From Escherichia coli (GTDB lineage Bacteria > Pseudomonadota > Gammaproteobacteria > Enterobacterales > Enterobacteriaceae), in the NCBI RefSeq assembly GCF_016026235.1, contig NZ_CP065613.1: a DNA stretch of 64,000 nt; one strand, written 5' to 3'. Under the pieces are notes generated by a model. The model saw only the letters and a list, made by a program, of their open reading frames with translations, was not told the DNA's origin and did not search any database. Positions 11,641 to 43,813 of this stretch are shown here, in pieces; the first letter of the stretch is position 1; each line of letters begins with the position of its first letter. Both the position numbers and the translations under genes were made by a program.

Positions 11641-12693
11641 ATGAAAAAAATACCCTGCGTGATGATGCGAGGTGGAACCTCGAGGGGCGCGTTCCTGTTA
11701 GCGGAACATTTACCCGAAGATCAAACGCAGCGCGATAAAATATTGATGGCAATTATGGGTTCCGGTAACGATCTGGAAATTGACGGTATTGGCGGCGGTA
11801 ATCCGCTGACCAGTAAAGTCGCCATTATTAGCCGCTCCAGCGATCCGCGTGCAGATGTCGATTATCTGTTTGCTCAAGTTATCGTCCATGAGCAACGTGT
11901 CGATACCACGCCTAACTGCGGCAATATGCTGTCTGGCGTTGGGGCATTCGCCATTGAAAATGGTTTGATTGCAGCGACTTCGCCAGTTACCCGCGTACGT
12001 ATCCGCAACGTCAATACGGGTACGTTCATCGAAGCTGATGTGCAAACGCCAAATGGTGTTGTCGAGTACGAGGGTAGCGCCAGAATTGACGGCGTACCGG
12101 GTACTGCCGCACCGGTTGCGCTCACTTTCCTGAATGCCGCCGGAACGAAAACCGGAAAAATCTTCCCAACGGATAATCAGATTGATTATTTTGACGATGT
12201 CCCGGTGACCTGTATCGATATGGCGATGCCAGTTGTCATTATTCCGGCTGAATATCTGGGAAAAACAGGTTATGAATTACCGGCGGAACTGGATGCCGAC
12301 AAAGCATTATTAGCCCGCATTGAATCTATCCGTCTACAAGCGGGTAAAGCAATGGGCTTAGGTGATGTCAGTAATATGGTTATCCCTAAACCTGTGCTTA
12401 TTTCTCCAGCGCAGAAAGGCGGGGCAATTAATGTGCGTTATTTTATGCCGCATTCTTGCCATCGCGCGCTGGCGATAACCGGTGCTATTGCTATTTCCAG
12501 TAGTTGTGCATTGGAAGGCACCGTCACCCGACAAATCGTCCCTTCTGTAGGATATGGCAATATCAATATTGAACACCCCAGTGGTGCGCTCGACGTTCAT
12601 TTAAGTAATGAAGGTCAGGATGCCACGACGTTACGCGCATCTGTTATTCGGACGACCAGAAAAATATTTTCCGGTGAAGTTTATCTTCCCTGA
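11641..12693 (+). CDS. ybhH: PrpF/AcnD-accessory-like putative isomerase
   Basis: 350 aa; conserved position and size. Confidence 0.8.
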   Translation: MKKIPCVMMRGGTSRGAFLLAEHLPEDQTQRDKILMAIMGSGNDLEIDGIGGGNPLTSKVAIISRSSDPRADVDYLFAQVIVHEQRVDTTPNCGNMLSGVGAFAIENGLIAATSPVTRVRIRNVNTGTFIEADVQTPNGVVEYEGSARIDGVPGTAAPVALTFLNAAGTKTGKIFPTDNQIDYFDDVPVTCIDMAMPVVIIPAEYLGKTGYELPAELDADKALLARIESIRLQAGKAMGLGDVSNMVIPKPVLISPAQKGGAINVRYFMPHSCHRALAITGAIAISSSCALEGTVTRQIVPSVGYGNINIEHPSGALDVHLSNEGQDATTLRASVIRTTRKIFSGEVYLP

Positions 12694-12768
12694 AAAAATT
12701 CGTTGTCAGGATAAGGACAATCAATAAAGGACTTCTGTATGAGTCATACAGAAAGAACAGGATTTTAA

Positions 12769-14202
12769 ATGAATAAGAAATCGTTATGGAAGCTAATTCT
12801 GATATTAGCGATCCCATGTATTATTGGCTTTATGCCAGCTCCGGCAGGATTAAGCGAACTGGCGTGGGTGCTTTTTGGTATTTACCTGGCGGCCATTGTG
12901 GGGCTGGTTATCAAGCCTTTCCCGGAACCTGTCGTACTGTTAATTGCCGTTGCTGCCTCCATGGTGGTGGTCGGTAACTTATCCGACGGTGCGTTTAAGA
13001 CCACCGCCGTATTAAGCGGTTACTCTTCAGGTACTACCTGGCTGGTGTTCTCGGCGTTTACCTTAAGCGCCGCATTTGTGACCACCGGTTTAGGTAAACG
13101 TATTGCCTATCTGCTGATTGGTAAAATCGGTAACACCACGCTGGGTCTGGGTTACGTTACGGTATTCCTCGATCTGGTATTGGCTCCGGCAACACCGTCT
13201 AACACCGCGCGTGCGGGCGGCATTGTGTTACCGATCATCAACAGCGTGGCGGTGGCTTTGGGGTCCGAACCGGAAAAAAGTCCGCGTCGTGTCGGACATT
13301 ACCTGATGATGTCCATTTACATGGTCACCAAAACCACCAGCTATATGTTCTTTACCGCAATGGCGGGGAACATTCTGGCGCTGAAAATGATCAACGACAT
13401 TCTGCACCTGCAAATTAGCTGGGGTGGATGGGCGCTGGCCTCCGGATTGCCGGGCATCATTATGCTGCTGGTCACCCCGCTGGTGATTTACACCATGTAT
13501 CCACCAGAAATTAAGAAGGTGGATAACAAAACCATCGCTAAAGCGGGTCTTGCCGAACTGGGACCGATGAAAATCCGCGAAAAAATGCTGCTCGGTGTCT
13601 TTGTGCTGGCGCTGCTGGGCTGGATTTTCAGTAAGTCTCTGGGGGTTGATGAATCTTCAGTGGCTATTGTTGTTATGGCGACCATGCTGCTGCTGGGTAT
13701 CGTTACCTGGGAAGACGTGGTTAAAAATAAAGGCGGCTGGAATACCTTAATCTGGTACGGCGGTATTATCGGCTTAAGTTCCTTATTATCGAAAGTTAAA
13801 TTCTTCGAATGGTTAGCTGAAGTCTTTAAAAATAACCTGGCATTTGATGGTCACGGAAACGTTGCTTTCTTCGTTATTATTTTCCTCAGCATCATCGTGC
13901 GTTATTTCTTCGCTTCCGGTAGTGCCTATATCGTTGCTATGTTACCGGTATTTGCCATGCTGGCGAACGTCTCCGGCGCACCGTTAATGTTAACCGCGCT
14001 GGCACTGTTGTTCTCCAACTCCTATGGCGGCATGGTTACTCACTATGGCGGCGCGGCAGGTCCGGTCATCTTTGGCGTGGGTTATAACGATATTAAATCC
14101 TGGTGGTTGGTCGGTGCGGTACTGACGATATTAACCTTCCTGGTGCATATCACCCTCGGAGTGTGGTGGTGGAATATGCTGATCGGCTGGAACATGCTGT
14201 AA
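12769..14202 (+). CDS. ybhI: Putative anion transporter (DASS/CitT-like permease)
   Basis: 477 aa, strongly hydrophobic multi-span membrane protein. Confidence 0.8.
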   Translation: MNKKSLWKLILILAIPCIIGFMPAPAGLSELAWVLFGIYLAAIVGLVIKPFPEPVVLLIAVAASMVVVGNLSDGAFKTTAVLSGYSSGTTWLVFSAFTLSAAFVTTGLGKRIAYLLIGKIGNTTLGLGYVTVFLDLVLAPATPSNTARAGGIVLPIINSVAVALGSEPEKSPRRVGHYLMMSIYMVTKTTSYMFFTAMAGNILALKMINDILHLQISWGGWALASGLPGIIMLLVTPLVIYTMYPPEIKKVDNKTIAKAGLAELGPMKIREKMLLGVFVLALLGWIFSKSLGVDESSVAIVVMATMLLLGIVTWEDVVKNKGGWNTLIWYGGIIGLSSLLSKVKFFEWLAEVFKNNLAFDGHGNVAFFVIIFLSIIVRYFFASGSAYIVAMLPVFAMLANVSGAPLMLTALALLFSNSYGGMVTHYGGAAGPVIFGVGYNDIKSWWLVGAVLTILTFLVHITLGVWWWNMLIGWNML

Positions 14203-14384
14203 ATATACTCGTCATACTTCAAGTTGCATGTGCTGAGTCTGCGTTCGCTCACCCCAGTCACTTACTTATGTAAGCTCCTGGGGATTCACTCGCTTGTCGC
14301 CTTCCTGCAACTCGAATTATTTAGAGTATATCCATTTATTATCTTTCTGCGCACTTCACGGTGCGCAGATATCTGGAGCATTTA

Positions 14385-16646
14385 ATGATCAAGTTATCTG
14401 AAAAAGGCGTGTTTCTCGCCAGTAATAACGAAATAATTGCCGAAGAACATTTCACCGGCGAAATTAAAAAAGAAGAAGCCAAAAAAGGCACTATTGCCTG
14501 GTCTATTCTCTCTTCTCATAATACGTCCGGAAATATGGATAAACTTAAAATTAAGTTTGATTCATTAGCCTCTCACGATATTACCTTTGTTGGTATTGTA
14601 CAGACCGCTAAAGCGTCCGGTATGGAACGTTTCCCGCTGCCGTATGTGCTGACCAACTGCCATAACTCACTTTGCGCCGTCGGCGGCACCATTAACGGTG
14701 ATGACCATGTTTTTGGTTTATCGGCGGCCCAGCGTTATGGCGGTATTTTTGTGCCTCCGCATATTGCGGTCATCCATCAATATATGCGTGAAATGATGGC
14801 AGGCGGCGGCAAAATGATCCTCGGGTCAGACAGCCACACCCGTTACGGTGCATTAGGGACAATGGCAGTCGGTGAGGGCGGCGGTGAATTGGTAAAACAG
14901 CTGCTTAATGACACCTGGGATATCGACTATCCGGGAGTTATTGCGGTGCATCTGACCGGAAAACCAGCGCCGTATGTCGGGCCGCAGGATGTGGCGCTGG
15001 CTATCATCGGTGCCGTGTTCAAAAACGGCTACGTCAAAAACAAAGTGATGGAATTCGTAGGTCCCGGTGTTGCTGCGCTCTCTACCGATTTCCGTAACAG
15101 TGTTGACGTTATGACCACTGAAACGACCTGTTTAAGTTCTGTCTGGCAAACCGATGAAGAAGTGCATAACTGGCTGGCGCTGCACGGTCGCGGCCAGGAT
15201 TACTGCCAGCTTAACCCTCAACCGATGGCGTACTACGATGGCTGCATCAGCGTTGATTTAAGCGCCATCAAACCAATGATTGCGCTGCCGTTCCACCCGA
15301 GCAACGTGTATGAAATCGACACACTGAACCAGAACCTGACCGACATTCTGCGTGAGATTGAAATTGAGTCCGAACGCGTGGCGCACGGTAAAGCCAAACT
15401 CTCGCTGCTGGACAAAGTGGAAAATGGTCGCCTGAAAGTGCAGCAGGGGATTATCGCGGGCTGTTCTGGCGGTAACTACGAAAACGTTATCGCGGCGGCG
15501 AATGCACTGCGCGGTCAATCCTGTGGCAATGACACCTTCTCGTTAGCGGTTTACCCGTCATCACAGCCAGTATTTATGGATTTAGCCAAAAAAGGTGTGG
15601 TAGCAGATTTGATTGGCGCAGGCGCAATCATCAGAACCGCGTTCTGCGGCCCATGCTTTGGCGCGGGCGATACGCCAATCAACAACGGTTTAAGTATTCG
15701 CCACACCACGCGTAACTTCCCGAACCGCGAAGGCTCTAAGCCAGCTAATGGGCAGATGTCAGCGGTGGCGTTGATGGACGCTCGTTCTATCGCTGCGACT
15801 GCGGCAAACGGTGGCTATTTAACTTCTGCCAGCGAACTCGATTGCTGGGACAACGTGCCGGAGTACGCCTTCGATGTAACGCCGTATAAAAACCGTGTTT
15901 ATCAGGGCTTTGTGAAAGGGGCAACTCAGCAACCGCTGATTTACGGACCGAACATTAAAGACTGGCCGGAATTAGGTGCGCTGACTGACAATATCGTCCT
16001 CAAAGTGTGCTCGAAGATCCTCGACGAAGTGACCACCACCGACGAATTGATTCCTTCCGGTGAAACCTCTTCTTATCGTTCAAATCCGATTGGTCTGGCG
16101 GAGTTTACCCTGTCTCGCCGCGATCCCGGTTATGTTGGCAGAAGTAAAGCGACTGCTGAGCTGGAAAATCAGCGTCTGGCGGGGAATGTCAGCGAGCTGA
16201 CAGAGGTGTTTGCGCGCATTAAGCAGATTGCTGGTCAGGAGCATATTGATCCGCTGCAAACTGAAATTGGCAGCATGGTCTATGCGGTGAAACCAGGCGA
16301 TGGTTCTGCGCGTGAACAGGCGGCGAGCTGCCAGCGTGTGATTGGCGGTTTGGCGAATATTGCCGAGGAGTACGCGACTAAACGCTACCGTTCTAACGTC
16401 ATCAACTGGGGGATGTTACCGCTGCAGATGGCGGAAGTGCCAACCTTTGAAGTGGGGGATTACATTTACATCCCTGGCATTAAAGCGGCGCTGGATAATC
16501 CGGGTAGGACGTTTAAAGGTTATGTGATCCATGAAGATGCGCCGGTAACGGAAATTACGCTCTATATGGAAAGTCTGACTGCTGAAGAGCGCGAGATTAT
16601 CAAGGCGGGTAGTTTGATTAACTTCAATAAAAACCGTCAGATGTAA
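14385..16646 (+). CDS. ybhJ: Aconitase-family protein
   Basis: About 753 aa from ATG 14385; aconitase-like Cys/Gly-rich motifs. Confidence 0.8.
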
Positions 16647-16659
16647 AAAGCGCCATGTG

Positions 16660-16866
16660 AATGTAGGTCGCATTCGGCACTTATTGTCGGATGCGATGCT
16701 TGCGCATCTTATCCGACCTACGAATCGCATCGAATCTGTAGGCCAGATAAGGCATTTACGCAGCATCCGGCACTTATTGTCGGATGCGATGCTGGCGCAT
16801 CTTATCCGACCTACAAATCGCATCGAACCGTAGGCCGGATAAGGTGTTTACGCCGCATCCGGCAAA
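16660..16866. repeat. REP/BIME cluster, two tandem units of about 93 bp
   Basis: Two direct copies of ...GGCACTTATTGTCGGATGCGATGCT.GCGCATCTTATCCGACCTAC... with imperfect palindromes. Confidence 0.6.
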
Positions 16867-16879
16867 TAGTTAATAGCTC

Positions 16880-18163
16880 TTACTTCTTCGCCTCTGCAAC
16901 CACTTTGCTACCCACGCCGCGGTTATTGTATTCCCACATGCGGTTGTAGTTAGTGTCATTCAGATTGCGCTGTATTTCGTCGCTATCGTCAACGCTGCCG
17001 GTATTACCCGCAAACGGACGATTAGAGATCACCGCATCGCCCCACGGTTTAACCGTGTTAAAACCTTCGTTGATGGCGCTATCACGGATCACCACCTGAC
17101 CGTTGGTATTGGCATCAACATCCAGCGAGCGGCCCAGTTGCGCCACGCCATCACCGGAAGCATTGAAACGGCTGTTTACGGCGAGGAAACCGTAATAGAT
17201 GTTGGACAGCGTAGCCGGTGCAAACACATACGCTTCTTGCTGAGTACGTGAGTTCACCACGCGGAATTCGGTGTTATCGAACACCACTGCACCGCGACCA
17301 GAAACGATATCCACATCCCCTTCAATATAGCTGTTGGTCACCAGCGTACGTGGCTGACGATTGGTTTCCAGACGGTTCTGCACACCGCTGTTGGTGACAA
17401 AGAAGGTGTTCTGACGACCGAGAATGTTAACGTTGTTAATCTGTACCTGGTCACCATCAGTACGCAGTGCCACCGCCGGATGGTTACCTGCATCTACGCT
17501 ATCGCCCAGCGTGTTTTCGATGGTCAGATTTTGCAGTTGCAGGCCATTGTTTTGTGACCAGAAGACCGCAGAACAGAGAACACCGATACTGTCGCTGCGT
17601 TTGCTCTGGCAGCTATCGTACATATACCACGCTGGTTTACCTGGCATATATTTGCCGCGCGGGTTGACGTCGTGACGCCAGTCGGCAGGGCTCATGCCAC
17701 CATCAAGGGAAAGCCCAATCTTCACATCAATCGGTTTTTCACCTGTACCGTACAGAGTAATTCCACCCGGAGCGGCAGGGACATATACCGTTCCCTGATA
17801 CTCACCAGGCATCACGGCAATATACTGGCGCTTGTTGGTACGCTTGATAATTGCCGCATCTACCGCCGCCTGAATCGTGGTATGCGTTACACCTTGAGTG
17901 CCCGCCGGGCCGACAACAAAGTCAGGTTGCGCAGGCAGGGTAATCGGGGACGGATTCCACGCTGCAGCACCTGGTGTCAGGGATGCAAAATAGTGTTGAG
18001 CATCGAAATTCTGCGCTTCTTTTGCCGACAGAATCGGGCGAGAAGAGGTACCAGGCGCAGTTTGATCAGAAGGACGTTGATCGGGTGGTGTTGAGCTACA
18101 GGCGGTCAGCGTCACGCCAAAAGCCAATGCCAGCGCCAGACGGGAAACTGAAAATGTGTTCAC
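16880..18163 (-). CDS. ybhC: Pectinesterase-fold outer-membrane lipoprotein
   Basis: 427 aa; N-terminal signal peptide with lipobox (LTAC); last core gene before att-lambda. Confidence 0.8.
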   Translation of the reverse strand: MNTFSVSRLALALAFGVTLTACSSTPPDQRPSDQTAPGTSSRPILSAKEAQNFDAQHYFASLTPGAAAWNPSPITLPAQPDFVVGPAGTQGVTHTTIQAAVDAAIIKRTNKRQYIAVMPGEYQGTVYVPAAPGGITLYGTGEKPIDVKIGLSLDGGMSPADWRHDVNPRGKYMPGKPAWYMYDSCQSKRSDSIGVLCSAVFWSQNNGLQLQNLTIENTLGDSVDAGNHPAVALRTDGDQVQINNVNILGRQNTFFVTNSGVQNRLETNRQPRTLVTNSYIEGDVDIVSGRGAVVFDNTEFRVVNSRTQQEAYVFAPATLSNIYYGFLAVNSRFNASGDGVAQLGRSLDVDANTNGQVVIRDSAINEGFNTVKPWGDAVISNRPFAGNTGSVDDSDEIQRNLNDTNYNRMWEYNNRGVGSKVVAEAKK

Positions 18164-18208
18164 AGGTTGCTCCGGGCTATGAAATAGAAAAATGAATCTG
18201 TTGAAGCC

Positions 18209-18300
18209 TGCTTTTTATACTAAGTTGGCATTATAAAAAAGCATTGCTTATCAATTTGTTGCAACGAACAGGTCATTATCAGTCAAAATAAAATCATTAT
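18209..18300. other. attL: lambda-type core plus phage P' arm
   Basis: GCTTTTTATACTAA core followed by GTTGGCATTATAAAAAAGCATTGCTTATCAATTTGTTGCAACGAACAGGTCA... with Int arm-type site CAGTCAAAAT. Confidence 0.8.
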
Positions 18301-19367
18301 TTGATTTCAATTTTGTCCCACTCCCTGCCTCTGTCATCACGATACTGTGATGCCATGGTGTCCGACTTGTGCCCGAGAAGATGTTGAGCAAACTTATCGC
18401 TTATCTGCTTCTCATAGAGTCTTGCAGACAAACTGCGCAACTCGTGAAAGGTAGGTGGATCCCCTTCGAAGGAAAGACCTGATGCTTTTCGTGCGCGCAT
18501 AAAATACCTTGATACTGTGCCGGATGAAAGCGGTTCACGACGAGTAGATGCAATTATGGTTTCTCCGCCAAGAATCTCTTTGCATTTATCAAGTGTTTCC
18601 TTCATTGATATCCCGAGAGCATCAACATGCAATGTTGTAGGGATGGCAATTTTTACGCCTGTTTTGCTTTGCTCGACATAAAGATATCCATCTACGATAT
18701 CAGACCACTTCATTTCGCATAAATCACCAACTCGTTGCCCGGTAACAACAGCCAGTTCCATTGCAAGTCTGAGCCAACATGGTGATGATTCTGCTGCTTG
18801 ATAAATTTTCAGGTATTCGTCAGCCGTAAGTCTTGATCTCCTTACCTCTGATTTTGCTGCGCGAGTGGCAGCGACCGGGTTTGTTGTTATATGGCCTTCA
18901 GCTATTGCCTCTCGGAATGCATCGCTCAGTGTTGATCTGATTAACTTGGCTGATGCCGCCTTGCCCTCGTCTATGTATCCATTGAGCATTGCCGCAATTT
19001 CTTTTGTGGTGATGTCTTCAAGTGGAGCATCAGGCAGCCCCCTCCTTATTGCTTTAATTTTGCTCATGTAATTTATGAGTGTCTTCTGCTTGATTCCTCT
19101 GCTGGCGAGGATTTTTTCGTAGCGATCAAGCCATGAATGTAACGTAACAGAATTATCACTGTTGATTCTCGCTGTCAGAGGCTTGTGTTTGTGTCCTGAA
19201 AATAACTCAATGTTGGCCTGTATAGCTTCAGTGATTGCGATTCGCCTGTCTCGGCCTAATCCAAACTCTTTACCCGTCCTTGGGTCCCTGTAGCAGTAAT
19301 ATCCATTGTTTCTTATATAAAGGTTAGGGGGTAAATCCCGGCGCTCATGACTTCGCCTTCTTCCCAT
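18297..19367 (-). CDS. int: Integrase (tyrosine recombinase), lambda Int type
   Basis: 356 aa starting MGRRRSHERRDLPPNLYIRNNGYYCYRDPRTGKEFGLGRDRR..., recognised as lambda Int. Confidence 0.95.
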   Translation of the reverse strand: MGRRRSHERRDLPPNLYIRNNGYYCYRDPRTGKEFGLGRDRRIAITEAIQANIELFSGHKHKPLTARINSDNSVTLHSWLDRYEKILASRGIKQKTLINYMSKIKAIRRGLPDAPLEDITTKEIAAMLNGYIDEGKAASAKLIRSTLSDAFREAIAEGHITTNPVAATRAAKSEVRRSRLTADEYLKIYQAAESSPCWLRLAMELAVVTGQRVGDLCEMKWSDIVDGYLYVEQSKTGVKIAIPTTLHVDALGISMKETLDKCKEILGGETIIASTRREPLSSGTVSRYFMRARKASGLSFEGDPPTFHELRSLSARLYEKQISDKFAQHLLGHKSDTMASQYRDDRGREWDKIEIK

Positions 19368-32031: not shown

Positions 32032-34938
32032 ATGAGGCCAAGTGAACTTAGCGACCTGCTTTGGGCGCAGGTTGACAGGGTGGCTCCGCACCTGTTGCCA
32101 AATGGCAAGAAAGAGGGGCATGAGTGGGTTGCCGGTAACGTCAACGGTGACAAGGGAAACAGCCTTAAGGTCAACCTTAGCGGCAAGAAAAAATGGGCTG
32201 ATTTCGCTGAGGGAGACGGCGGTGACATGCTTGATTTGTGGATGGCATGTCGTGGAATTAACCTGCATCAGGCTATGCAGGAAGCGAAAGCATTTCTCGG
32301 TATCAAGGATGACGATCACCATTTCGATGCCAGACGTGAGAAGAAATTCTCCAGACCTGATCGCAAGAAAATCGCCCGCTACGTTACCAGAACAGAATCC
32401 CATCTTGAGTACCTGCAATCGCGTGGCATATCGCCAGAAGTCGTAAAGCGCTACGAGGTTGTCAGCGGCAAGGTGTGGAATGGAGAACGAGAACTGGATG
32501 CTCTGGTGCTTCCGTACAAACGCGATGGTGAGTTGTTGCAGGTCAAGCGAATCAGCACTGAGCGCCCGGACGGGAAGAAAGTCATTATGGCAGAAGGTGA
32601 TTGCGAACCTTGTCTGTTCGGATGGCAGGCTCTGGACGCTGGCGTGAGGGCGGTTGTACTTTGCGAAGGCGAAATTGATTGTATGAGCTATGCGCAATAC
32701 GGCATCTCGGCGTTATCCGTGCCGTTTGGTGGCGGGAAAGGCGCTAAGCAACAGTGGATTGAGTTTGAGTATCACAACCTCGACAGGTTTGAGGAAATAT
32801 TCATCTCGATGGACGTTGATGATGTTGGTCGTGAAGCCGCAAGGGAAATCGCAAGCCGACTCGGTGAACATCGTTGCCGTCTTGTTACTCTGCCGTACAA
32901 AGACATCAACGAATGCCTGATGAACGGTGTTACCGAGGATGAAATCTGGCAGTACATCGGCACGGCATCCTACTTTGATCCTGAAGAACTCTACAGCGCG
33001 CGAGAGTTTTACCAGGACACTATCAACGCTTTCTACAGCAAGCAGCAGTATCTGTTTAATCCACCGTGGGAATCTCTGGCAGATAAATTCCAGTTCCGTG
33101 AGGCCGAGTTGACGCTGGTCAATGGTGTGAACGGTCACGGAAAGGCATGCCCACTGAATGAGCCTATTCTTTTAGCTGATGGGACATGGACTACTCACGG
33201 GAATGTAAAAATTGGCGATCAGGTGGCGTCAGTAGACGGCAATCCGTCAACTGTCACTGGGATATTCCCGCAGGGTGTTAGAGATGTTTACCGAGTCACA
33301 TTTGAAGATGGTCGTTATGTTGATTGCGCAGGCGATCACCTATGGGAGGTCACTAGTCGTGGATTCACGAAAGGCGAGAAACGCCGCGTGATAGATACCT
33401 TCGGGTTGAAGCGGTTGAGTGAAACGAAGAGGCACAAAAATGGCGTTAGGATTCCTGAAATAACTGGTGACTTTGGCGACCACTCAGAGCCATTAGCATG
33501 GGTTATCGGCTCCCTTCTCGGGGATGGTAGTCTTAGCAATGGGAGCGTGAAGTTTTCAAACGTCGAGCCATACATGATCGAGCGTATGAAGGCTGAACTG
33601 CCTGATTACAACTTCTCTGGAGATGGTAAGGACTGGCTGATATCAACGGCGCGTGGTCAGGTAAATCCACTCATGGAGACCCTGCGAGGTTATGGACTAA
33701 TGGGGTGCACAGCAAAAAACAAATTCATCCCTCGTGTGTTTTTTTCCGCAAATAAATCAACGCGTATAGGCATGCTGTGTGGTCTGCTTGAAACGGATGG
33801 GTATGTCGAGAAGGATGGAACGCTTGTTTTTTCCTCAGCAAGTGAAGAACTGCGCAATGGGGTTGTTCAACTGGTTAACTCACTCGGCGGGTCATGCCGG
33901 ACGCGAGTTAAAACTGGCGTGACATACACATACAAGGACGATAAGCGGCATGGGATGGATTCATACGAGGCAAGAATCAGACTGACAAGAGAAATCAGGG
34001 AGGCCATCCGTTCACCACGACTCAATGGCAGATTAACTGCGCATCGATTCGAGGGCTGTGGGGTATTCGTCAGGAATGTTGAAAAAATCGGCAATGCAGA
34101 ATGCTTGTGTATTATGGTCGATCACCCTCGCCACCTGTATGTAACCAGGGGATATGTGGCGACGCATAACACCGAGGTTGTCGGGCATATGGCACTTGAG
34201 GCAATGCGTCAGGGTGTGAAGACGTGCATCGCGTCACTTGAGCTGAAGCCTGGTATTCTCCTTAAGCGCCTTACCCGTCAGGCGACGTGCTGCAAGATTC
34301 CGCCAGTGCTGGAAATTGACTCTGCATTTAAATTTTATGACGAAAGACTTTGGGTGTTTGGCCTGACCGGAACGGCGAAAGCCGACAGGCTGATCGAAAT
34401 ATTCGACTACGCTCGCCGCCGATACGGGATCCAGTTATTCATCATCGACAGCCTGATGAAATGTGGCATAGGCGACGATGACTATAACGGGCAGAAGGCG
34501 TTTGTTGACTCGATTTGCGACTTCAAAAACAAAACAAACTCCCACGTCATTCTCGTTACTCACTCGCGAAAAGGAGACAGCGAAGAAAAACCAACCGGGA
34601 AAATGGACGTAAAAGGCTCTGGAGCGATAACAGACCTGACAGACAACCTTTTCATCATCTGGCGTAACAAGGCTCGCGAGAGAGCGTTACAGAGAGTTCA
34701 GAGTGGTGAAAAGATGTCAGAGAAGGACGAACAGCTACTGGCATCTCCGGCATCTGTTTTAATGCTTGAAAAACAACGTAACGGCGAAGGTTGGGAAGGT
34801 GGTGTCCCGTTGTTCCTTGACGAGCAATCGCACCAGTTCCTGCAACTTGAATCAGGATCGCCATATAGCTACATCGCCAATATGCCGAAATCGGAATATG
34901 ACGAGGCGTGGCGACAGGAAAACGTGACGGAGTATTAA
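32032..34938 (+). CDS. Primase-helicase (toprim primase plus DnaB-like helicase) containing an intein
   Basis: 968 aa; toprim motifs (VVLCEGEIDCMS, FISMDVDDVG); helicase P-loop GVNGHGKA and Walker B-like LFIIDSL; intein inserted after GKA. Confidence 0.8.
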   Translation: MRPSELSDLLWAQVDRVAPHLLPNGKKEGHEWVAGNVNGDKGNSLKVNLSGKKKWADFAEGDGGDMLDLWMACRGINLHQAMQEAKAFLGIKDDDHHFDARREKKFSRPDRKKIARYVTRTESHLEYLQSRGISPEVVKRYEVVSGKVWNGERELDALVLPYKRDGELLQVKRISTERPDGKKVIMAEGDCEPCLFGWQALDAGVRAVVLCEGEIDCMSYAQYGISALSVPFGGGKGAKQQWIEFEYHNLDRFEEIFISMDVDDVGREAAREIASRLGEHRCRLVTLPYKDINECLMNGVTEDEIWQYIGTASYFDPEELYSAREFYQDTINAFYSKQQYLFNPPWESLADKFQFREAELTLVNGVNGHGKACPLNEPILLADGTWTTHGNVKIGDQVASVDGNPSTVTGIFPQGVRDVYRVTFEDGRYVDCAGDHLWEVTSRGFTKGEKRRVIDTFGLKRLSETKRHKNGVRIPEITGDFGDHSEPLAWVIGSLLGDGSLSNGSVKFSNVEPYMIERMKAELPDYNFSGDGKDWLISTARGQVNPLMETLRGYGLMGCTAKNKFIPRVFFSANKSTRIGMLCGLLETDGYVEKDGTLVFSSASEELRNGVVQLVNSLGGSCRTRVKTGVTYTYKDDKRHGMDSYEARIRLTREIREAIRSPRLNGRLTAHRFEGCGVFVRNVEKIGNAECLCIMVDHPRHLYVTRGYVATHNTEVVGHMALEAMRQGVKTCIASLELKPGILLKRLTRQATCCKIPPVLEIDSAFKFYDERLWVFGLTGTAKADRLIEIFDYARRRYGIQLFIIDSLMKCGIGDDDYNGQKAFVDSICDFKNKTNSHVILVTHSRKGDSEEKPTGKMDVKGSGAITDLTDNLFIIWRNKARERALQRVQSGEKMSEKDEQLLASPASVLMLEKQRNGEGWEGGVPLFLDEQSHQFLQLESGSPYSYIANMPKSEYDEAWRQENVTEY
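33148..34170 (+). other. Intein (341 aa) with LAGLIDADG homing-endonuclease domain
   Basis: Starts CPLNEPILLADGTW...IGDQVASVDG, two LAGLIDADG-type blocks (LAWVIGSLLGDGSL, GMLCGLLETDGYV), ends ...VATHN followed by Thr. Confidence 0.75.
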
Positions 34939-39159: not shown

Positions 39160-39779
39160 GACTCGAAAGCGTAGCTAAATTTCATTCGCCAAAAAGCCCG
39201 ATGATGAGCGACTCACCACGGGCTACGGCTTCTGACTCTCTTTCCGGTACTGATGTGATGGCTGCTATGGGGATGGCGCAATCACAAGCCGGATTCGGAA
39301 TGGCTGCATTTTGCGGTAAGCATGAACTCAGCCAGAACGACAAACAAAAGGCTATCAACTATCTGATGCAATTTGCACACAAGGTATCGGGGAAATACCG
39401 TGGTGTGGCAAAGCTCGAAGGAAATACTAAGGCAAAGGTACTGCAAGTGCTCGCAACATTCGCTTATGCGGATTATTGCCGTAGTGCCGCGACGCCGGGC
39501 GCAAGATGCAGAGATTGCCACGGAACAGGTCTGGCAGTTGATATAGCCAAAACAGAGCAGTGGGGGAGAGTTGTCGAGAAAGAGTGCGGAAGATGCAAAG
39601 GTGTCGGCTATTCAAGGATGCCAGCAAGTGCAGCATATCGCGCTGTAACGATGCTAATCCCAAACCTCACCCAACCCACATGGTCACGCACTGTTAAGCC
39701 GCTGTATGACGCTCTGGTGGTGCAATGCCACAAAGAAGAGTCAATCGCAGACAACATTTTGAATGCGGTCACACGTTAG
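39156..39779 (+). CDS. Q: Late antiterminator Q (lambda type)
   Basis: 207 aa MRLESVAKFHSPKSPMMSDSPRATASDSLSG..., recognised as lambda Q. Confidence 0.95.
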   Translation: MRLESVAKFHSPKSPMMSDSPRATASDSLSGTDVMAAMGMAQSQAGFGMAAFCGKHELSQNDKQKAINYLMQFAHKVSGKYRGVAKLEGNTKAKVLQVLATFAYADYCRSAATPGARCRDCHGTGLAVDIAKTEQWGRVVEKECGRCKGVGYSRMPASAAYRAVTMLIPNLTQPTWSRTVKPLYDALVVQCHKEESIADNILNAVTR

Positions 39780-39820
39780 CGGCATGATTGCCACGGATGG
39801 CAACATCTTAACGGCATGAT

Positions 39821-39860
39821 ATTGACTTTTTGAATAAAGTTGGGTAAATTTGACTCAAGA
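39821..39860 (+). promoter_or_regulatory. Late promoter PR' / qut region
   Basis: TTGACTTTTTGAATAAAGTTGGGTAAATTTGACTCAAG matches the lambda PR' -35/-10 and Q-utilisation site as recalled. Confidence 0.6.
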
Positions 39861-40039
39861 ATGGCAGGTTTATATCCGTTCACATTCTTTCGGTTTTTTA
39901 CCCACCTCATCTTTAAGTTGTGACTGCTCCCCGCCCTGTCGGGCGAGGGTTTACGGCGTTTTTCGCTAAGCGCACTGACATGCGCATCATAAACTCGGGA
40001 GCACATAGGAATAGAGCCTGCTTTCGGGATTTTTTATTT

Positions 40040-40114
40040 GGGTCAGTCGTATAAAGGTCATTACGGAAGGCTGTTAACCTTCTTATCGTGGTTCGAGTCC
40101 ACGCTGTCCCGCCA
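40040..40114 (+). tRNA. tRNA-like gene, anticodon GTT (Asn) by manual fold; possibly degenerate
   Basis: Cloverleaf: acceptor GGGTCAG/CTGTCCC (one mismatch), 3-bp D stem, anticodon stem GAAGG/CCTTC with loop CTGTTAA, T arm CGTGG-TTCGAGT-CCACG, 3' CCA. Confidence 0.45.
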
Positions 40115-40119
40115 AATAT

Positions 40120-40195
40120 GCTGGTTTAGCTCTAATGGTAGAGCAGTCGCCTTGTAAGCGAATGGGTAGCGGTTCAAGTCCGTTAACCAGCACCA
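40120..40195 (+). tRNA. tRNA, anticodon TGT (Thr) by manual fold
   Basis: Perfect acceptor stem GCTGGTT/AACCAGC, D arm GCTC-TAATGGTA-GAGC, anticodon loop CTTGTAA, T arm AGCGG-TTCAAGT-CCGTT, 3' ACCA. Confidence 0.55.
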
Positions 40196-40311
40196 TAACT
40201 GAGCCGTAGCCACTGGCTATCCTGAATTCATCAGTGACAGTTACGCTGCGGCCTTCTTTTCCCCTTCCCAATATAAGAACTACGCCATCCGTTATTTGCG
40301 GAGGTGAGGCT

Positions 40312-40527
40312 ATGAAATCCATGGACAAAATTTCAACGGGCATTGCCTACGGCACCTCCGCCGGCAGTGCCGGCTACTGGTTTTTGCAGTGGTTGGATCA
40401 GGTCAGTCCGTCACAGTGGGCTGCGATTGGTGTGCTGGGAAGTCTGCTTCTGGGGCTTCTGACTTATCTGACAAATCTGTATTTCAAAATAAGAGAAGAC
40501 AAGCGTAAGGCTGCGCGGGGAGAGTAA
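40312..40527 (+). CDS. S: Pinholin (phage 21 S-type holin)
   Basis: 71 aa [30 protein letters not shown]... with dual-start motif; GGAGGTGAGG upstream. Confidence 0.85.
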
Positions 40528-40531
40528 TTCA

Positions 40532-41062
40532 ATGACACAAAACTATGAACTGATTGTGAAAGGGATCCGCAATTTTGAGAATAAAGTTGCGGTAACTTTA
40601 GCGTTACGGGACAAAAAACGCTTTGACGGTGAAATTTTTGACCTGGACATCTCGCTGGACCGTGTTGAAGGTGCCGCGCTGGAGTTTTATGAGGCAGCGG
40701 CCAGAATGAGAATCAGACAGGTATTCCTGGATGTTGCTGCCGGGTTATGTGAAGGGGATGAGCAGTCGCCGGAAAAGCGCCCCATAATTTTAGAGGCGCA
40801 GAATGTGTGGATAACCTACAAAGGAAAGCTACCGGGAAGAATTACTGGTTCTCTGAAGACGCCACCGACGGCATTGCGGTCAGAAAAAGATGATATTGAA
40901 TCGCCCATTGAAAAACTGGAGAAAAAATTGTCGGTGCTGATTCCTTCTGAAGATGAAAAAAAACGCCGCGATGAGCAGTTTGCGGCGTTTTACGATTATT
41001 GCATTGAAGTTACTCGCAGGAATTTTGTGAAGATTTTTGAGGAGGGTAAATCTCTTCAGTAA
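40532..41062 (+). CDS. Hypothetical protein (176 aa) inserted between holin and endolysin
   Basis: Starts 5 nt after the holin stop; charged, Lys/Glu-rich C-terminus; no family recognised. Confidence 0.45.
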   Translation: MTQNYELIVKGIRNFENKVAVTLALRDKKRFDGEIFDLDISLDRVEGAALEFYEAAARMRIRQVFLDVAAGLCEGDEQSPEKRPIILEAQNVWITYKGKLPGRITGSLKTPPTALRSEKDDIESPIEKLEKKLSVLIPSEDEKKRRDEQFAAFYDYCIEVTRRNFVKIFEEGKSLQ

Positions 41063-41276
41063 GCTTAATGGCGGACGCTGCAATTAATTCAGGAAGGTCC
41101 GCAAGGTCATCTGTCAGTGGATATGATGAAAAATCGGCGGCAGTTCTGTTAAGAAGCGCTTTAACTAATTCCTTTTCCTTCTCCGGCAACAAGTTGATTA
41201 GAGCTACGACTGCTTGCCTGAGTGCGATTAAATCAGCAAAAGTTTGTTTTGGTAGATTTGTGTAATCCGTAGTCAC
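41010..41276 (-). CDS. Hypothetical small protein, convergent with the preceding gene
   Basis: 88-aa ORF with GTG start and weak RBS; overlaps the 3' end of the 176-aa gene. Confidence 0.2.
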   Translation of the reverse strand: MTTDYTNLPKQTFADLIALRQAVVALINLLPEKEKELVKALLNRTAADFSSYPLTDDLADLPELIAASAIKLTEEIYPPQKSSQNSCE

Positions 41277-42351: not shown

Positions 42352-42553
42352 TTTTTTTGCAAATCACAAAGTCAATTTAATGAGCCTCGCACTTGCGGGG
42401 CTTTTATATGTCCGCAGTAAACCGCGCATCGCAGCGCGTAACAATCCCGAGTCTTTCAGAAAGCTGAGCCTGAGAACTGCCGTATATGGTGGCGACCATC
42501 TCGGGGCGGCTTTTCTGTGCGAACAGGCTCATCTTTCTAAAAGGTAAGACGCT

Positions 42554-42614
42554 ATGAATATCGTTCCACTGAATTACAAAGGCGAACCTATCCGCTTCAA
42601 TACTGATGGCTGGA
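42554..42614 (+). pseudogene. KilA-N/Bro-N domain protein, 5' portion (split by IS600)
   Basis: MNIVPLNYKGEPIRFNTDGW then the IS left end. Confidence 0.55.
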
Positions 42615-42657
42615 TGAGGTGTACTGGCAATAGCGGACACTACCATTTGTTCTTTTT

Positions 42658-43476
42658 TTAAGCAGCCATCTGATGATATTTTTCCCTGAAGGCTGCCGGG
42701 GAGATATTCCCCAGACGAGAGTGACGACGCTGACGATTGTAGAAAATCTCAATGTATTCCCGTATTACTGAGATGGCTTCATCCCGGTTATTAAAACGAT
42801 AGTGGCTCAGGCTCTCATTTTTCAGCGTTCCCCAGAAGCTTTCCATCGGAGCGTTGTCGTAACAGTTACCTTTACGCGACATTGATGTTTTCAGACCAAA
42901 CTGCTCCTGTATGACCCGGTAATCGTATGCGCAGTACTGTGAACCTCGATCAGAGTGGTGGATTAGCCCGGCAGGTGGGCGCTGGCTCCTGAGCGCCATA
43001 AACAGGGCTTTACCTGTCAGCTCTTTTGTCATGCGCTCTCCCATGGCGTAGCCGACAATTTCGCACGTATAAACATCTTTGATGCCAGCGAGGTACAACC
43101 ATCCCTCCTGTGTGGCAACATACGTCAGGTCCGCCACCCAGACCTGATTTGGTGCTGTAGGAGCGAACGTCTGGTTCAGCAGATTTGGCGCAACTGGCAG
43201 ATTGTGGTTCGGGTTCGTAGTCGCTCTGAACTTGCGTTTCTGCTTACAGCGTAGCCTTAGCTCCTTACGAAGACGTGCCAGTCGGTCACGACCAACGATG
43301 ATGCCATTCTCTGCCAGCTCCGTCTGGAGCCGCCGGGTTCCATATGTTTCGCGAGTGCGGATATGTGCCACCTTAATCTCCAGTTTTAGCCGCTCATCAC
43401 TTTGTTTTCTGTCTGAGGGTTCATGCTGTACCCAGTTGTAATAACCGCTCCTGGATACACCAAATACCTGACACAT
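42658..43476 (-). CDS. IS3-family transposase OrfB (DDE integrase domain)
   Basis: 272-aa ORF with DDE motif region; normally expressed as an OrfAB fusion by -1 frameshift. Confidence 0.85.
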   Translation of the reverse strand: MCQVFGVSRSGYYNWVQHEPSDRKQSDERLKLEIKVAHIRTRETYGTRRLQTELAENGIIVGRDRLARLRKELRLRCKQKRKFRATTNPNHNLPVAPNLLNQTFAPTAPNQVWVADLTYVATQEGWLYLAGIKDVYTCEIVGYAMGERMTKELTGKALFMALRSQRPPAGLIHHSDRGSQYCAYDYRVIQEQFGLKTSMSRKGNCYDNAPMESFWGTLKNESLSHYRFNNRDEAISVIREYIEIFYNRQRRHSRLGNISPAAFREKYHQMAA

Positions 43477-43525
43477 CGCTTCAATGGGAAATTGTTGTCG
43501 CCATTGTTCGATTAACGCGTATTTT

Positions 43526-43813
43526 TCAGCGACTCCTGTGCAAAATACGCTGTTGCTTTTTTAATATATCTCGCTCAAGGCGAGCTTCATTTAACGCCTT
43601 ACGCAGTTGCAGAATTTCAGATTCCAGTTCAGCCACCGTGCGGGAGCCAGGAGTACCGAGCCCTTTTCTGGCGGCGGTAACCCATTGTCCTAAAGTGCCT
43701 TCAGGAAGGGATAATCGGGAAGCGCCTTCACTGATCGAAAGTTGATTTTCAAGAACCGTTCTGACAGCTTCGGCTTTGAACTCTTTAGAGTAACGTTGGG
43801 TTTTTCTGCTCAT
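43526..43813 (-). CDS. IS3-family transposase OrfA (HTH)
   Basis: 95 aa with HTH and leucine zipper; slippery TTAAAAAAG near its 3' end. Confidence 0.85.
   Translation of the reverse strand: MSRKTQRYSKEFKAEAVRTVLENQLSISEGASRLSLPEGTLGQWVTAARKGLGTPGSRTVAELESEILQLRKALNEARLERDILKKQQRILHRSR

Follow-up and report, generated by a model that had tools for sequence, protein, structure and literature searches.

Tandem tRNA-Asn and tRNA-Thr genes in the late leader of a lambda-like Escherichia coli prophage and their proposed role as nuclease-resistant replacement tRNAs

One or both members of a pair of transfer RNA (tRNA) genes have been described downstream of the late antiterminator gene Q in the phages Sf6, ST64T, PS3 and P21 (PMC3636060, citing Guo, Kainz & Roberts 1991), and the genome paper of phage SfI reports the same pair in this position (PMC3636060). 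In the current analysis we have considered such a pair, a tRNA-Asn(GUU) gene followed by a tRNA-Thr(UGU) gene, in a lambda-like prophage of Escherichia coli (contig NZ_CP065613.1). The window, i.e. the whole stretch of DNA analysed, comprises 64 kb, and both genes lie in positions 39780-40311, the exact gap between the stop of Q (39779) and the start of the holin gene (40312). Such a pair is already known, as its sequences are annotated in model phages, its location was described between 1991 and 2013 and a mechanism for the tRNA-Thr was published in 2025. With annotations in RefSeq, phage 21, Sf6 and SfI the discovery value of the genes is little, and the locus serves as a worked example of the changed reading of tRNA genes in temperate phages.

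The nuclease P2-OLD is known to kill cells by cleavage of the host tRNA-ThrU, whose anticodon stem it cuts at paired CNG motifs (Govande et al. 2025, PMC12445682). Co-expression of lambda Gam activates it experimentally, and the host tRNA-Asn(GUU) is among the tRNAs that it cuts more slowly than tRNA-ThrU, its fastest substrate (PMC12445682). Phage Thr(UGU) tRNAs, such as tRNA-Thr21 and tRNA-Thr6, rescue cells from P2-OLD. The tRNA-Thr of phage 21 protects against the nuclease and is almost completely resistant at Site 1, which has been attributed to a shorter anticodon stem and to pair changes at the cleavage sites including C28U/G42A (PMC12445682). A second nuclease, AriB of the PARIS system, targets the tRNAs Lys(UUU), Thr(UGU) and Asn(GUU) at the site U36-A-A-U39-C40|N41 (Belukhina et al. 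2025, PMC12409363). Cleavage by AriB is abolished by U39A and impaired by A41C and U16C, and the Lys, Thr and Asn variants of phage T5 jointly neutralise PARIS (PMC12409363). The Asn and Thr targets are given in that paper; none were found in the PARIS Nature paper (PMC11464382).

The tRNA pair and its nuclease determinants

ARAGORN, applied to the whole window, identified exactly two tRNAs, tRNA-Asn(gtt) and tRNA-Thr(tgt), and Rfam agrees with both calls, each scoring far over the gathering score of 29 for RF00005 (Table 1). In the initial annotation a pair of tRNA-like genes, their anticodons given as GTT and TGT, had been folded by hand, and the tRNA-finding software that it had named as a check rejected neither. 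An Rfam scan of 39500-40600 (E ≤ 1) matched no family besides these two, and by the score threshold as well as by the independent finder both belong to the bacterial elongator tRNAs of RF00005. A 3' CCA is encoded in each gene. Asparagine identity resides in G34, U35 and U36 together with G73, and threonine identity in G1-C72, C2-G71, G35 and U36; all of these synthetase identity elements are read in the two sequences, the tRNA-Asn having G73 and the tRNA-Thr having G1-C72, C2-G71 and A73. Both tRNA genes are genuine and intact.

The two tRNAs differ from their host counterparts at the positions on which the published nucleases depend. Host thrU (anticodon stem ACUGA/UCAGU) and host asnT (GCGGA/UCCGU) have CNG at both 28-30 and 40-42, U39, U16 and a paired 27·43. 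Neither motif is present in the tRNA-Thr of the window (GUCGC/GCGAA), which has G39 and A16, and in which G27·A43 at the top of the stem is a non-pair. The tRNA-Asn (GAAGG/CCUUC) likewise has neither motif, with C39, A16 and a paired 27·43; the host cleavage determinants (the CNG pair, U39, the C40|C41 context and U16) are gone and the anticodon is GUU. The features that define an anti-OLD tRNA-Thr at the sequence level, namely the UGU anticodon, altered CNG motifs and a shortened stem, are all found in the tRNA-Thr, whose anticodon arm is that of phage 21 tRNA-Thr, with C28U/G42A doing away with the CNG motif and G27·A43 shortening the stem. By analogy with the phage 21 allele the tRNA-Thr of the window would be protective against OLD. 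From the loss of the determinants the tRNA-Asn would be nuclease-resistant, and the pair may resist AriB. Experiments on a lambdoid tRNA-Asn are not described in the papers retrieved.

Nucleases acting on the anticodon loop have also been considered. HepS, a nuclease of a Salmonella prophage, cleaves Thr tRNAs within this loop; the loop of the window tRNA is unchanged, and HepS is therefore not obviously evaded. Colicin E5 cleaves inside the anticodon loop as well. Its evasion by the tRNA-Asn was set aside, since the loop CUGUUAA is the same as that of the host.

We propose that polymerase modified by Q and started from the late promoter PR', or occasional read-through, would pass the terminator tR' and transcribe the tRNAs, and that processing of this late transcript would release the mature tRNAs upstream of the lysis genes. 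The pair would then supply resistant stand-ins for two host tRNAs cut by nucleases of competing P2/P4-type elements, the nucleases evaded being P2-OLD and, probably, PARIS AriB. Late proteins could still be made after destruction of the host tRNA-ThrU and tRNA-Asn, and the tRNA-Thr would additionally raise the decoding capacity for ACA, a rare codon of the host. This nuclease-resistant tRNA replacement, together with ACA supply by the tRNA-Thr, is in our view the best explanation of the pair, with a probability of about 0.65. The same prophage encodes a homologue of lambda Gam, the RecBCD inhibitor, and therefore carries the OLD trigger alongside the proposed antidote.

The pair constitutes the late-leader tRNA module that is conserved among lambda-like phages, phage 21 and Sf6 included. 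Its tRNA-Asn is identical to the phage 21 and Sf6 genes at 75/75 positions and its tRNA-Thr at 75/76, the one change being U instead of C at position 14 in the D-loop. A query with the intergenic region including its flanks returned 156 phage records, those listed matching over the pair; by organism name 72 are Salmonella phages and 55 Escherichia phages, and both lambda-like and P22-like phages are included. The 156-nt pair alone was found in 368 of 5426 complete E. coli genomes (~7%), usually in one copy; this query supersedes an earlier count of 1403 genomes that was inflated by PR' and the downstream flanks. In the closest E. coli genome, FDAARGOS_943 (99.8%), the pair is 100% identical and both tRNAs are annotated by RefSeq. 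An HNH endonuclease gene has been observed between PR' and the same pair in E. coli H33-H37 (e.g. NZ_CP158112.1 1500858-1502028).

Variants of the pair were obtained from viral contigs (IMG/VR) scanned for tandem Asn(GTT)-Thr(TGT) with the stems left unconstrained. Among 10 distinct phage-21-type variants of the tRNA-Asn, standard pairs make up 91% of the stem cells. Four pairs are changed on both sides (A6-U67 to G-C, G7-C66 to A-U, A28-U42 to C-G at columns 28/42, and U4·U69 to G·U or U·G), the covariation score is reached by 0/500 shuffles, and slid partners drop the pairing to 34-54%. The tRNA-Thr, represented by 17 sequences, has 95.8% of cells paired and nine pairs doubly changed, and again 0/500 shuffles reach the score; over both tRNAs the slid-partner controls gave 22-54% paired. 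Both tRNA genes are under selection. The departures from pairing are themselves retained, U4·U69 in 8/10 and U13·U22 in 10/10 of the Asn variants and the G27·A43 non-pair in 12/12 phage-21-type Thr variants.

A second family of alleles (~70% identity), identified in the contigs L120 and L088, occupies the same slot between terminator and holin. Its tRNA-Asn is only 69% identical overall and yet has the same acceptor-stem sequence including U4·U69. One viral contig combines a second-family tRNA-Asn with a phage-21-type tRNA-Thr, and the slot is therefore conserved while the alleles are exchanged. Judged from their sequences, the alleles may differ in the nuclease evaded.

Several points weigh against nuclease-resistant replacement as the role of the pair. 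In the second-family tRNA-Thr both CNG motifs remain and the anticodon stem is paired throughout, so that not every allele of the slot has lost the motif. Suppression of P2-OLD toxicity by the phage Thr tRNAs is only partial (PMC12445682). The tRNA-Lys(UUU) is necessary to bypass B185 PARIS in T5 derivatives (PMC12409363); ARAGORN finds none in the window, where the T5-type anti-PARIS set is thus incomplete, and the pair alone probably cannot defeat a B185-type PARIS. Gam is an early protein and the tRNAs are part of the late operon, which bears on when they would be supplied with respect to the damage. The enrichment of ACA alone could explain the retention of the tRNA-Thr. Given the insertion sequence (IS) elements of this prophage, the module may no longer be selected in the present host.

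A stronger form of the proposal regards both genes as a dedicated two-tRNA counter-defence cassette that Gam-encoding lambda-like phages direct against the Toprim nucleases of P2/P4 elements that cut the anticodon stem (OLD, and partly PARIS). We hold it only tentatively and at somewhat below even odds. As parts of such a cassette U4·U69, U13·U22, the A16 of both tRNAs, the non-A14 of the tRNA-Thr and G27·A43 would be adaptations for evasion rather than signs of decay, and read-through of tR' might shield the lysogen too.

Codon usage, decay and the toxin slot

The best surviving alternative is pure codon supplementation, according to which the tRNAs top up the pool for codons preferred by the phage and have no role in defence. 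The codon-usage comparison proposed in the initial annotation was made between heuristically called genes of the prophage and the flanking host genes of the window, and it accounts for one tRNA of the two. ACA makes up 24.1% (178/738) of the Thr codons in the prophage and 8.8% (13/148) in the host flank (Fisher p = 1.5e-5), or 14.3 and 4.9 per 1000 codons, an enrichment of about threefold. The tRNA-Thr(UGU) gene of E. coli is single (PMC12445682), and SfI shows a similar bias with ACA at 17.3% against 7.1% (PMC3636060). Asn codons are not enriched, with 40.5 per 1000 codons in the prophage against 52.9 in the flanking host genes, and the share of AAT among them is 0.47 against 0.44 (p = 0.56). 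As K-12 has four tRNA-Asn genes besides, the tRNA-Asn remains unexplained by supplementation; in SfI also Asn codons are unbiased and the tRNA-Asn was left unexplained by codon use (PMC3636060).

Supplementation is furthermore silent on the anticodon stems and D-loops, which depart from the host sequences at precisely those positions that are published as nuclease determinants, and on the protection given by the phage alleles where host thrU gives little or none against OLD (PMC12445682). At most it would account for the Thr gene, and as an explanation of the pair we regard it as unlikely. Under nuclease-resistant replacement the Asn gene, which has no rationale in codon usage, makes sense because both phage copies are without the cleavage determinants and the Gam trigger is present.

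Much less probable is that the genes are decaying relics or neutral hitch-hikers kept by their conserved regulatory surroundings. The mismatches U4·U69 in the acceptor stem and U13·U22 in the D stem of the tRNA-Asn, and G27·A43 and the non-A14 of the tRNA-Thr, could be taken as signs of decay, as could the indels or altered discriminator base of the variants L015, L029 and L103, the annotation of the tRNA-Thr without the tRNA-Asn in one RefSeq genome (H88), and the IS elements in the prophage of the window. Against decay stand the high Rfam scores with intact identity elements and CCA, the 100% identity of the window's Asn gene to those of phage 21 and Sf6, the compensatory double substitutions in acceptor and anticodon stems, the retention of the mismatches in the 69%-identical family, and the activity of the phage 21 Thr allele in vivo (PMC12445682). 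The suggestion of the initial annotation that the first tRNA has a mismatched acceptor stem and may be degenerate is thus correct as to the mismatch; the degeneracy is contradicted by a mismatch that is conserved and by stems that are compensated.

Phages that encode Shiga toxin (Stx) carry Ile and Arg tRNA genes in the corresponding slot, followed by stxA and stxB. An ileX tRNA gene lies beside the Stx2 operon, where a supply for rare codons has been proposed (PMC3636060, citing Schmidt 1997). That the present locus is a virulence slot of this type, its toxin lost or not yet gained, has hardly any probability in spite of the shared position after Q, PR' and tR' and before the lysis genes, since the anticodons are those of Asn and Thr and not of Ile and Arg, the annotated regions of phage 21, Sf6 and SfI have no toxin gene at the pair, and the 116 nt from the tRNA-Thr to the holin start are homologous to phage 21, and partly to lambda, without a remnant open reading frame (ORF). 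Frames of ≥40 aa in this gap are only the upstream extension of the holin frame and an antisense ORF overlapping the tRNAs.

The absence of stx, as stated in the initial annotation, therefore stands, and its comparison with an Stx-type slot minus the toxin is misleading, the locus being a different module known at this place in phage 21, Sf6, SfI, ST64T and PS3. Its statement that there is no cargo holds for the gap between tRNA and holin; it does not hold further downstream, where holin and endolysin are separated by a DUF1327/YdfR gene together with a small antisense ORF.

The late-control region and the rest of the prophage

The order given in the initial annotation, in which a lambda-type late promoter precedes the tRNAs and the holin follows them, is found as Q, PR', tR', the two tRNAs and a pinholin (Table 1).

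Table 1. Coordinates of the tRNA genes and other features in the window
Feature	Position	Strand	Evidence or remark
Late antiterminator Q, lambda type, 207 aa	39156-39779	+	Pfam PF03589 E=3.1e-57; 3' end ~identical to lambda Q DNA
PR' late promoter	39822-39850	+	-35 TTGACT, 17-nt spacer, -10 TAAATT; promoter scan; lambda alignment
Middle of PR' leader, rare variant	39880-39990	+	
tR'-like intrinsic terminator	39994-40039	+	hairpin 39994-40028, then AUUUUUUAUUU; RNA fold
tRNA-Asn(GUU)	40040-40114	+	ARAGORN; Rfam RF00005 55.3 bits, E = 6e-11
tRNA-Thr(UGU)	40120-40195	+	ARAGORN; Rfam RF00005 63.2 bits, E = 4e-13
Stable hairpin, then pyrimidine/T-rich run	40203-40252	+	RNA fold -23.4 kcal/mol, z = -3.76
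Phage-21-type class II (pin)holin, dual start M1/M4	40312-40527	+	Pfam PF04971 E=1.1e-35
DUF1327/YdfR-family gene, 176 aa	40532-41062		between pinholin and endolysin
Holin-endolysin insert	40532-41276		contains the DUF1327/YdfR-family gene and the 88-aa ORF
IS3/IS600 element	42400-43800		between Rz and terminase genes
Lambda Gam homologue (RecBCD inhibitor)	24348-24644	-	Pfam PF06064 E=3.7e-65; same prophage
IS110-family transposase	30063-31259	-	early region
968-aa ORF	32032-34938	+	
Nmad5 protein	25102-25785	-	adjoins N antiterminator gene
DUF3024 protein	27698-28039	-	adjoins CI-like repressor gene
Lambda-type integrase	18297-19367	-	beside ybhC
ipaH-carrying chromosome	1-9400		Shigella/enteroinvasive E. 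coli-like
ipaH-carrying chromosome	9465-18250		Shigella/enteroinvasive E. coli-like

PR' and the early transcribed region match lambda nearly base for base. The hairpin of tR' (-12.5 kcal/mol, z = -2.35) is weaker than those of lambda (-28.3) and phage 21 (-20.2), and a simple terminator scan did not call it; its 3' half and T-run are homologous to lambda tR'. The terminator ends 1 base upstream of the tRNA-Asn. A promoter scan between tR' and the tRNA-Asn revealed none specific to the tRNAs. With the tRNAs starting directly after tR' and having no promoter of their own, their transcription would therefore proceed from PR', as the anatomy of the region suggests. In a BTP1 lysogen both tRNA genes were excluded from the list of highly expressed genes.

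The element of ~60 nt that follows the tRNA-Thr and forms a stable hairpin is kept in sequence in phage 21 and also in lambda, which is without the tRNAs, and it may be a second terminator of the late leader or a processing site. Lambda and the window correspond in the 3' end of Q, in PR' and the start of its transcript, in tR' as far as its 3' half and T-run are concerned, and in this post-tRNA element. The place that the two tRNAs take in phage 21 and the window, between tR' and the conserved element, is filled by 162 nt in lambda. The possibility that these 162 nt are decayed tRNAs was considered and rejected, as Rfam gave no tRNA-like match even at E up to 10. A global alignment with the pair scored 63 against 49.5±7.9 for shuffled sequences, 28/500 of which were as high, and a remnant is unconvincing.

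In its middle part the PR' leader belongs to a rare variant, the intergenic query being covered to ≥80% in 7/5426 E. coli genomes and fully in one of them. A GC-rich hairpin, CCCGCCC-UGUC-GGGCGAGGG, lies in this part and precedes UUUACGGCGUUUUU.

A DUF1327/YdfR-family gene of 176 aa, against 93 positions in the Pfam model, has been identified between the pinholin and the signal-arrest-release (SAR) endolysin. The same insert encodes a convergent (antisense) ORF of 88 aa without a family match.

The prophage is interrupted by an IS110-family transposase gene and an IS3/IS600 element, and it is probably defective for particle production; the segment from Q through the tRNAs to the lysis genes is intact.

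The 968-aa ORF of this prophage comprises a Toprim_2 domain (aa 209-296) and a LAGLIDADG homing-endonuclease domain (579-634), with Hint (379-424) and AAA_25 (789-849) matches that are both below the Pfam curated cutoff. This domain organisation suggests a phage primase/helicase into which an intein has been inserted. An Nmad5 (nucleotide-modification-associated) protein adjoins the gene of the N antiterminator, and a DUF3024 protein adjoins that of a CI-like repressor, both being encoded by accessory genes of the early region. The integrase of lambda type lies beside ybhC, and remnants of tail-fibre genes occur with ipaH at the left end; the host chromosome is of the ipaH-carrying type.

Comparison with known systems

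The pair in phage 21 and Sf6 (OL657228, AF547987) and in SfI (JX509734) lies in the same slot after tR' and before the holin, with Asn preceding Thr and a spacer of 5 nt, and the window is alike in all these respects. Phage 21 has the Q21 system, and the window pair is instead combined with a lambda-type Q/PR'/qut and the rare leader variant. The holin of the window shares the dual start arrangement recorded as S21-71/S21-68 in phage 21. Holin and endolysin are adjacent in phage 21, unlike in the window, where accessory DNA between the two recalls the Qin-type arrangement.

The tRNAs of Stx phages (ileZ-argN-argO or ileX), upstream of stxAB, share the slot; they have other identities, and no toxin genes follow in the window. 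T5, a virulent phage, carries a cluster of 24 tRNAs as against two genes in the late leader of a temperate phage, and the HNH endonuclease genes interspersed in that cluster are reminiscent of the E. coli H33-H37 prophages. The T5 set has three anticodons targeted by AriB (Burman 2024; PMC12409363), of which the window matches two, being without a tRNA-Lys(UUU). T5 tRNA-Thr has G39-C40 instead of U39-C40, as has the tRNA-Thr of the window. A close likeness is that to tRNA-Thr21 (PMC12445682), which has the same anticodon arm as the tRNA-Thr of the window and is separated from it by a single base of the D-loop.

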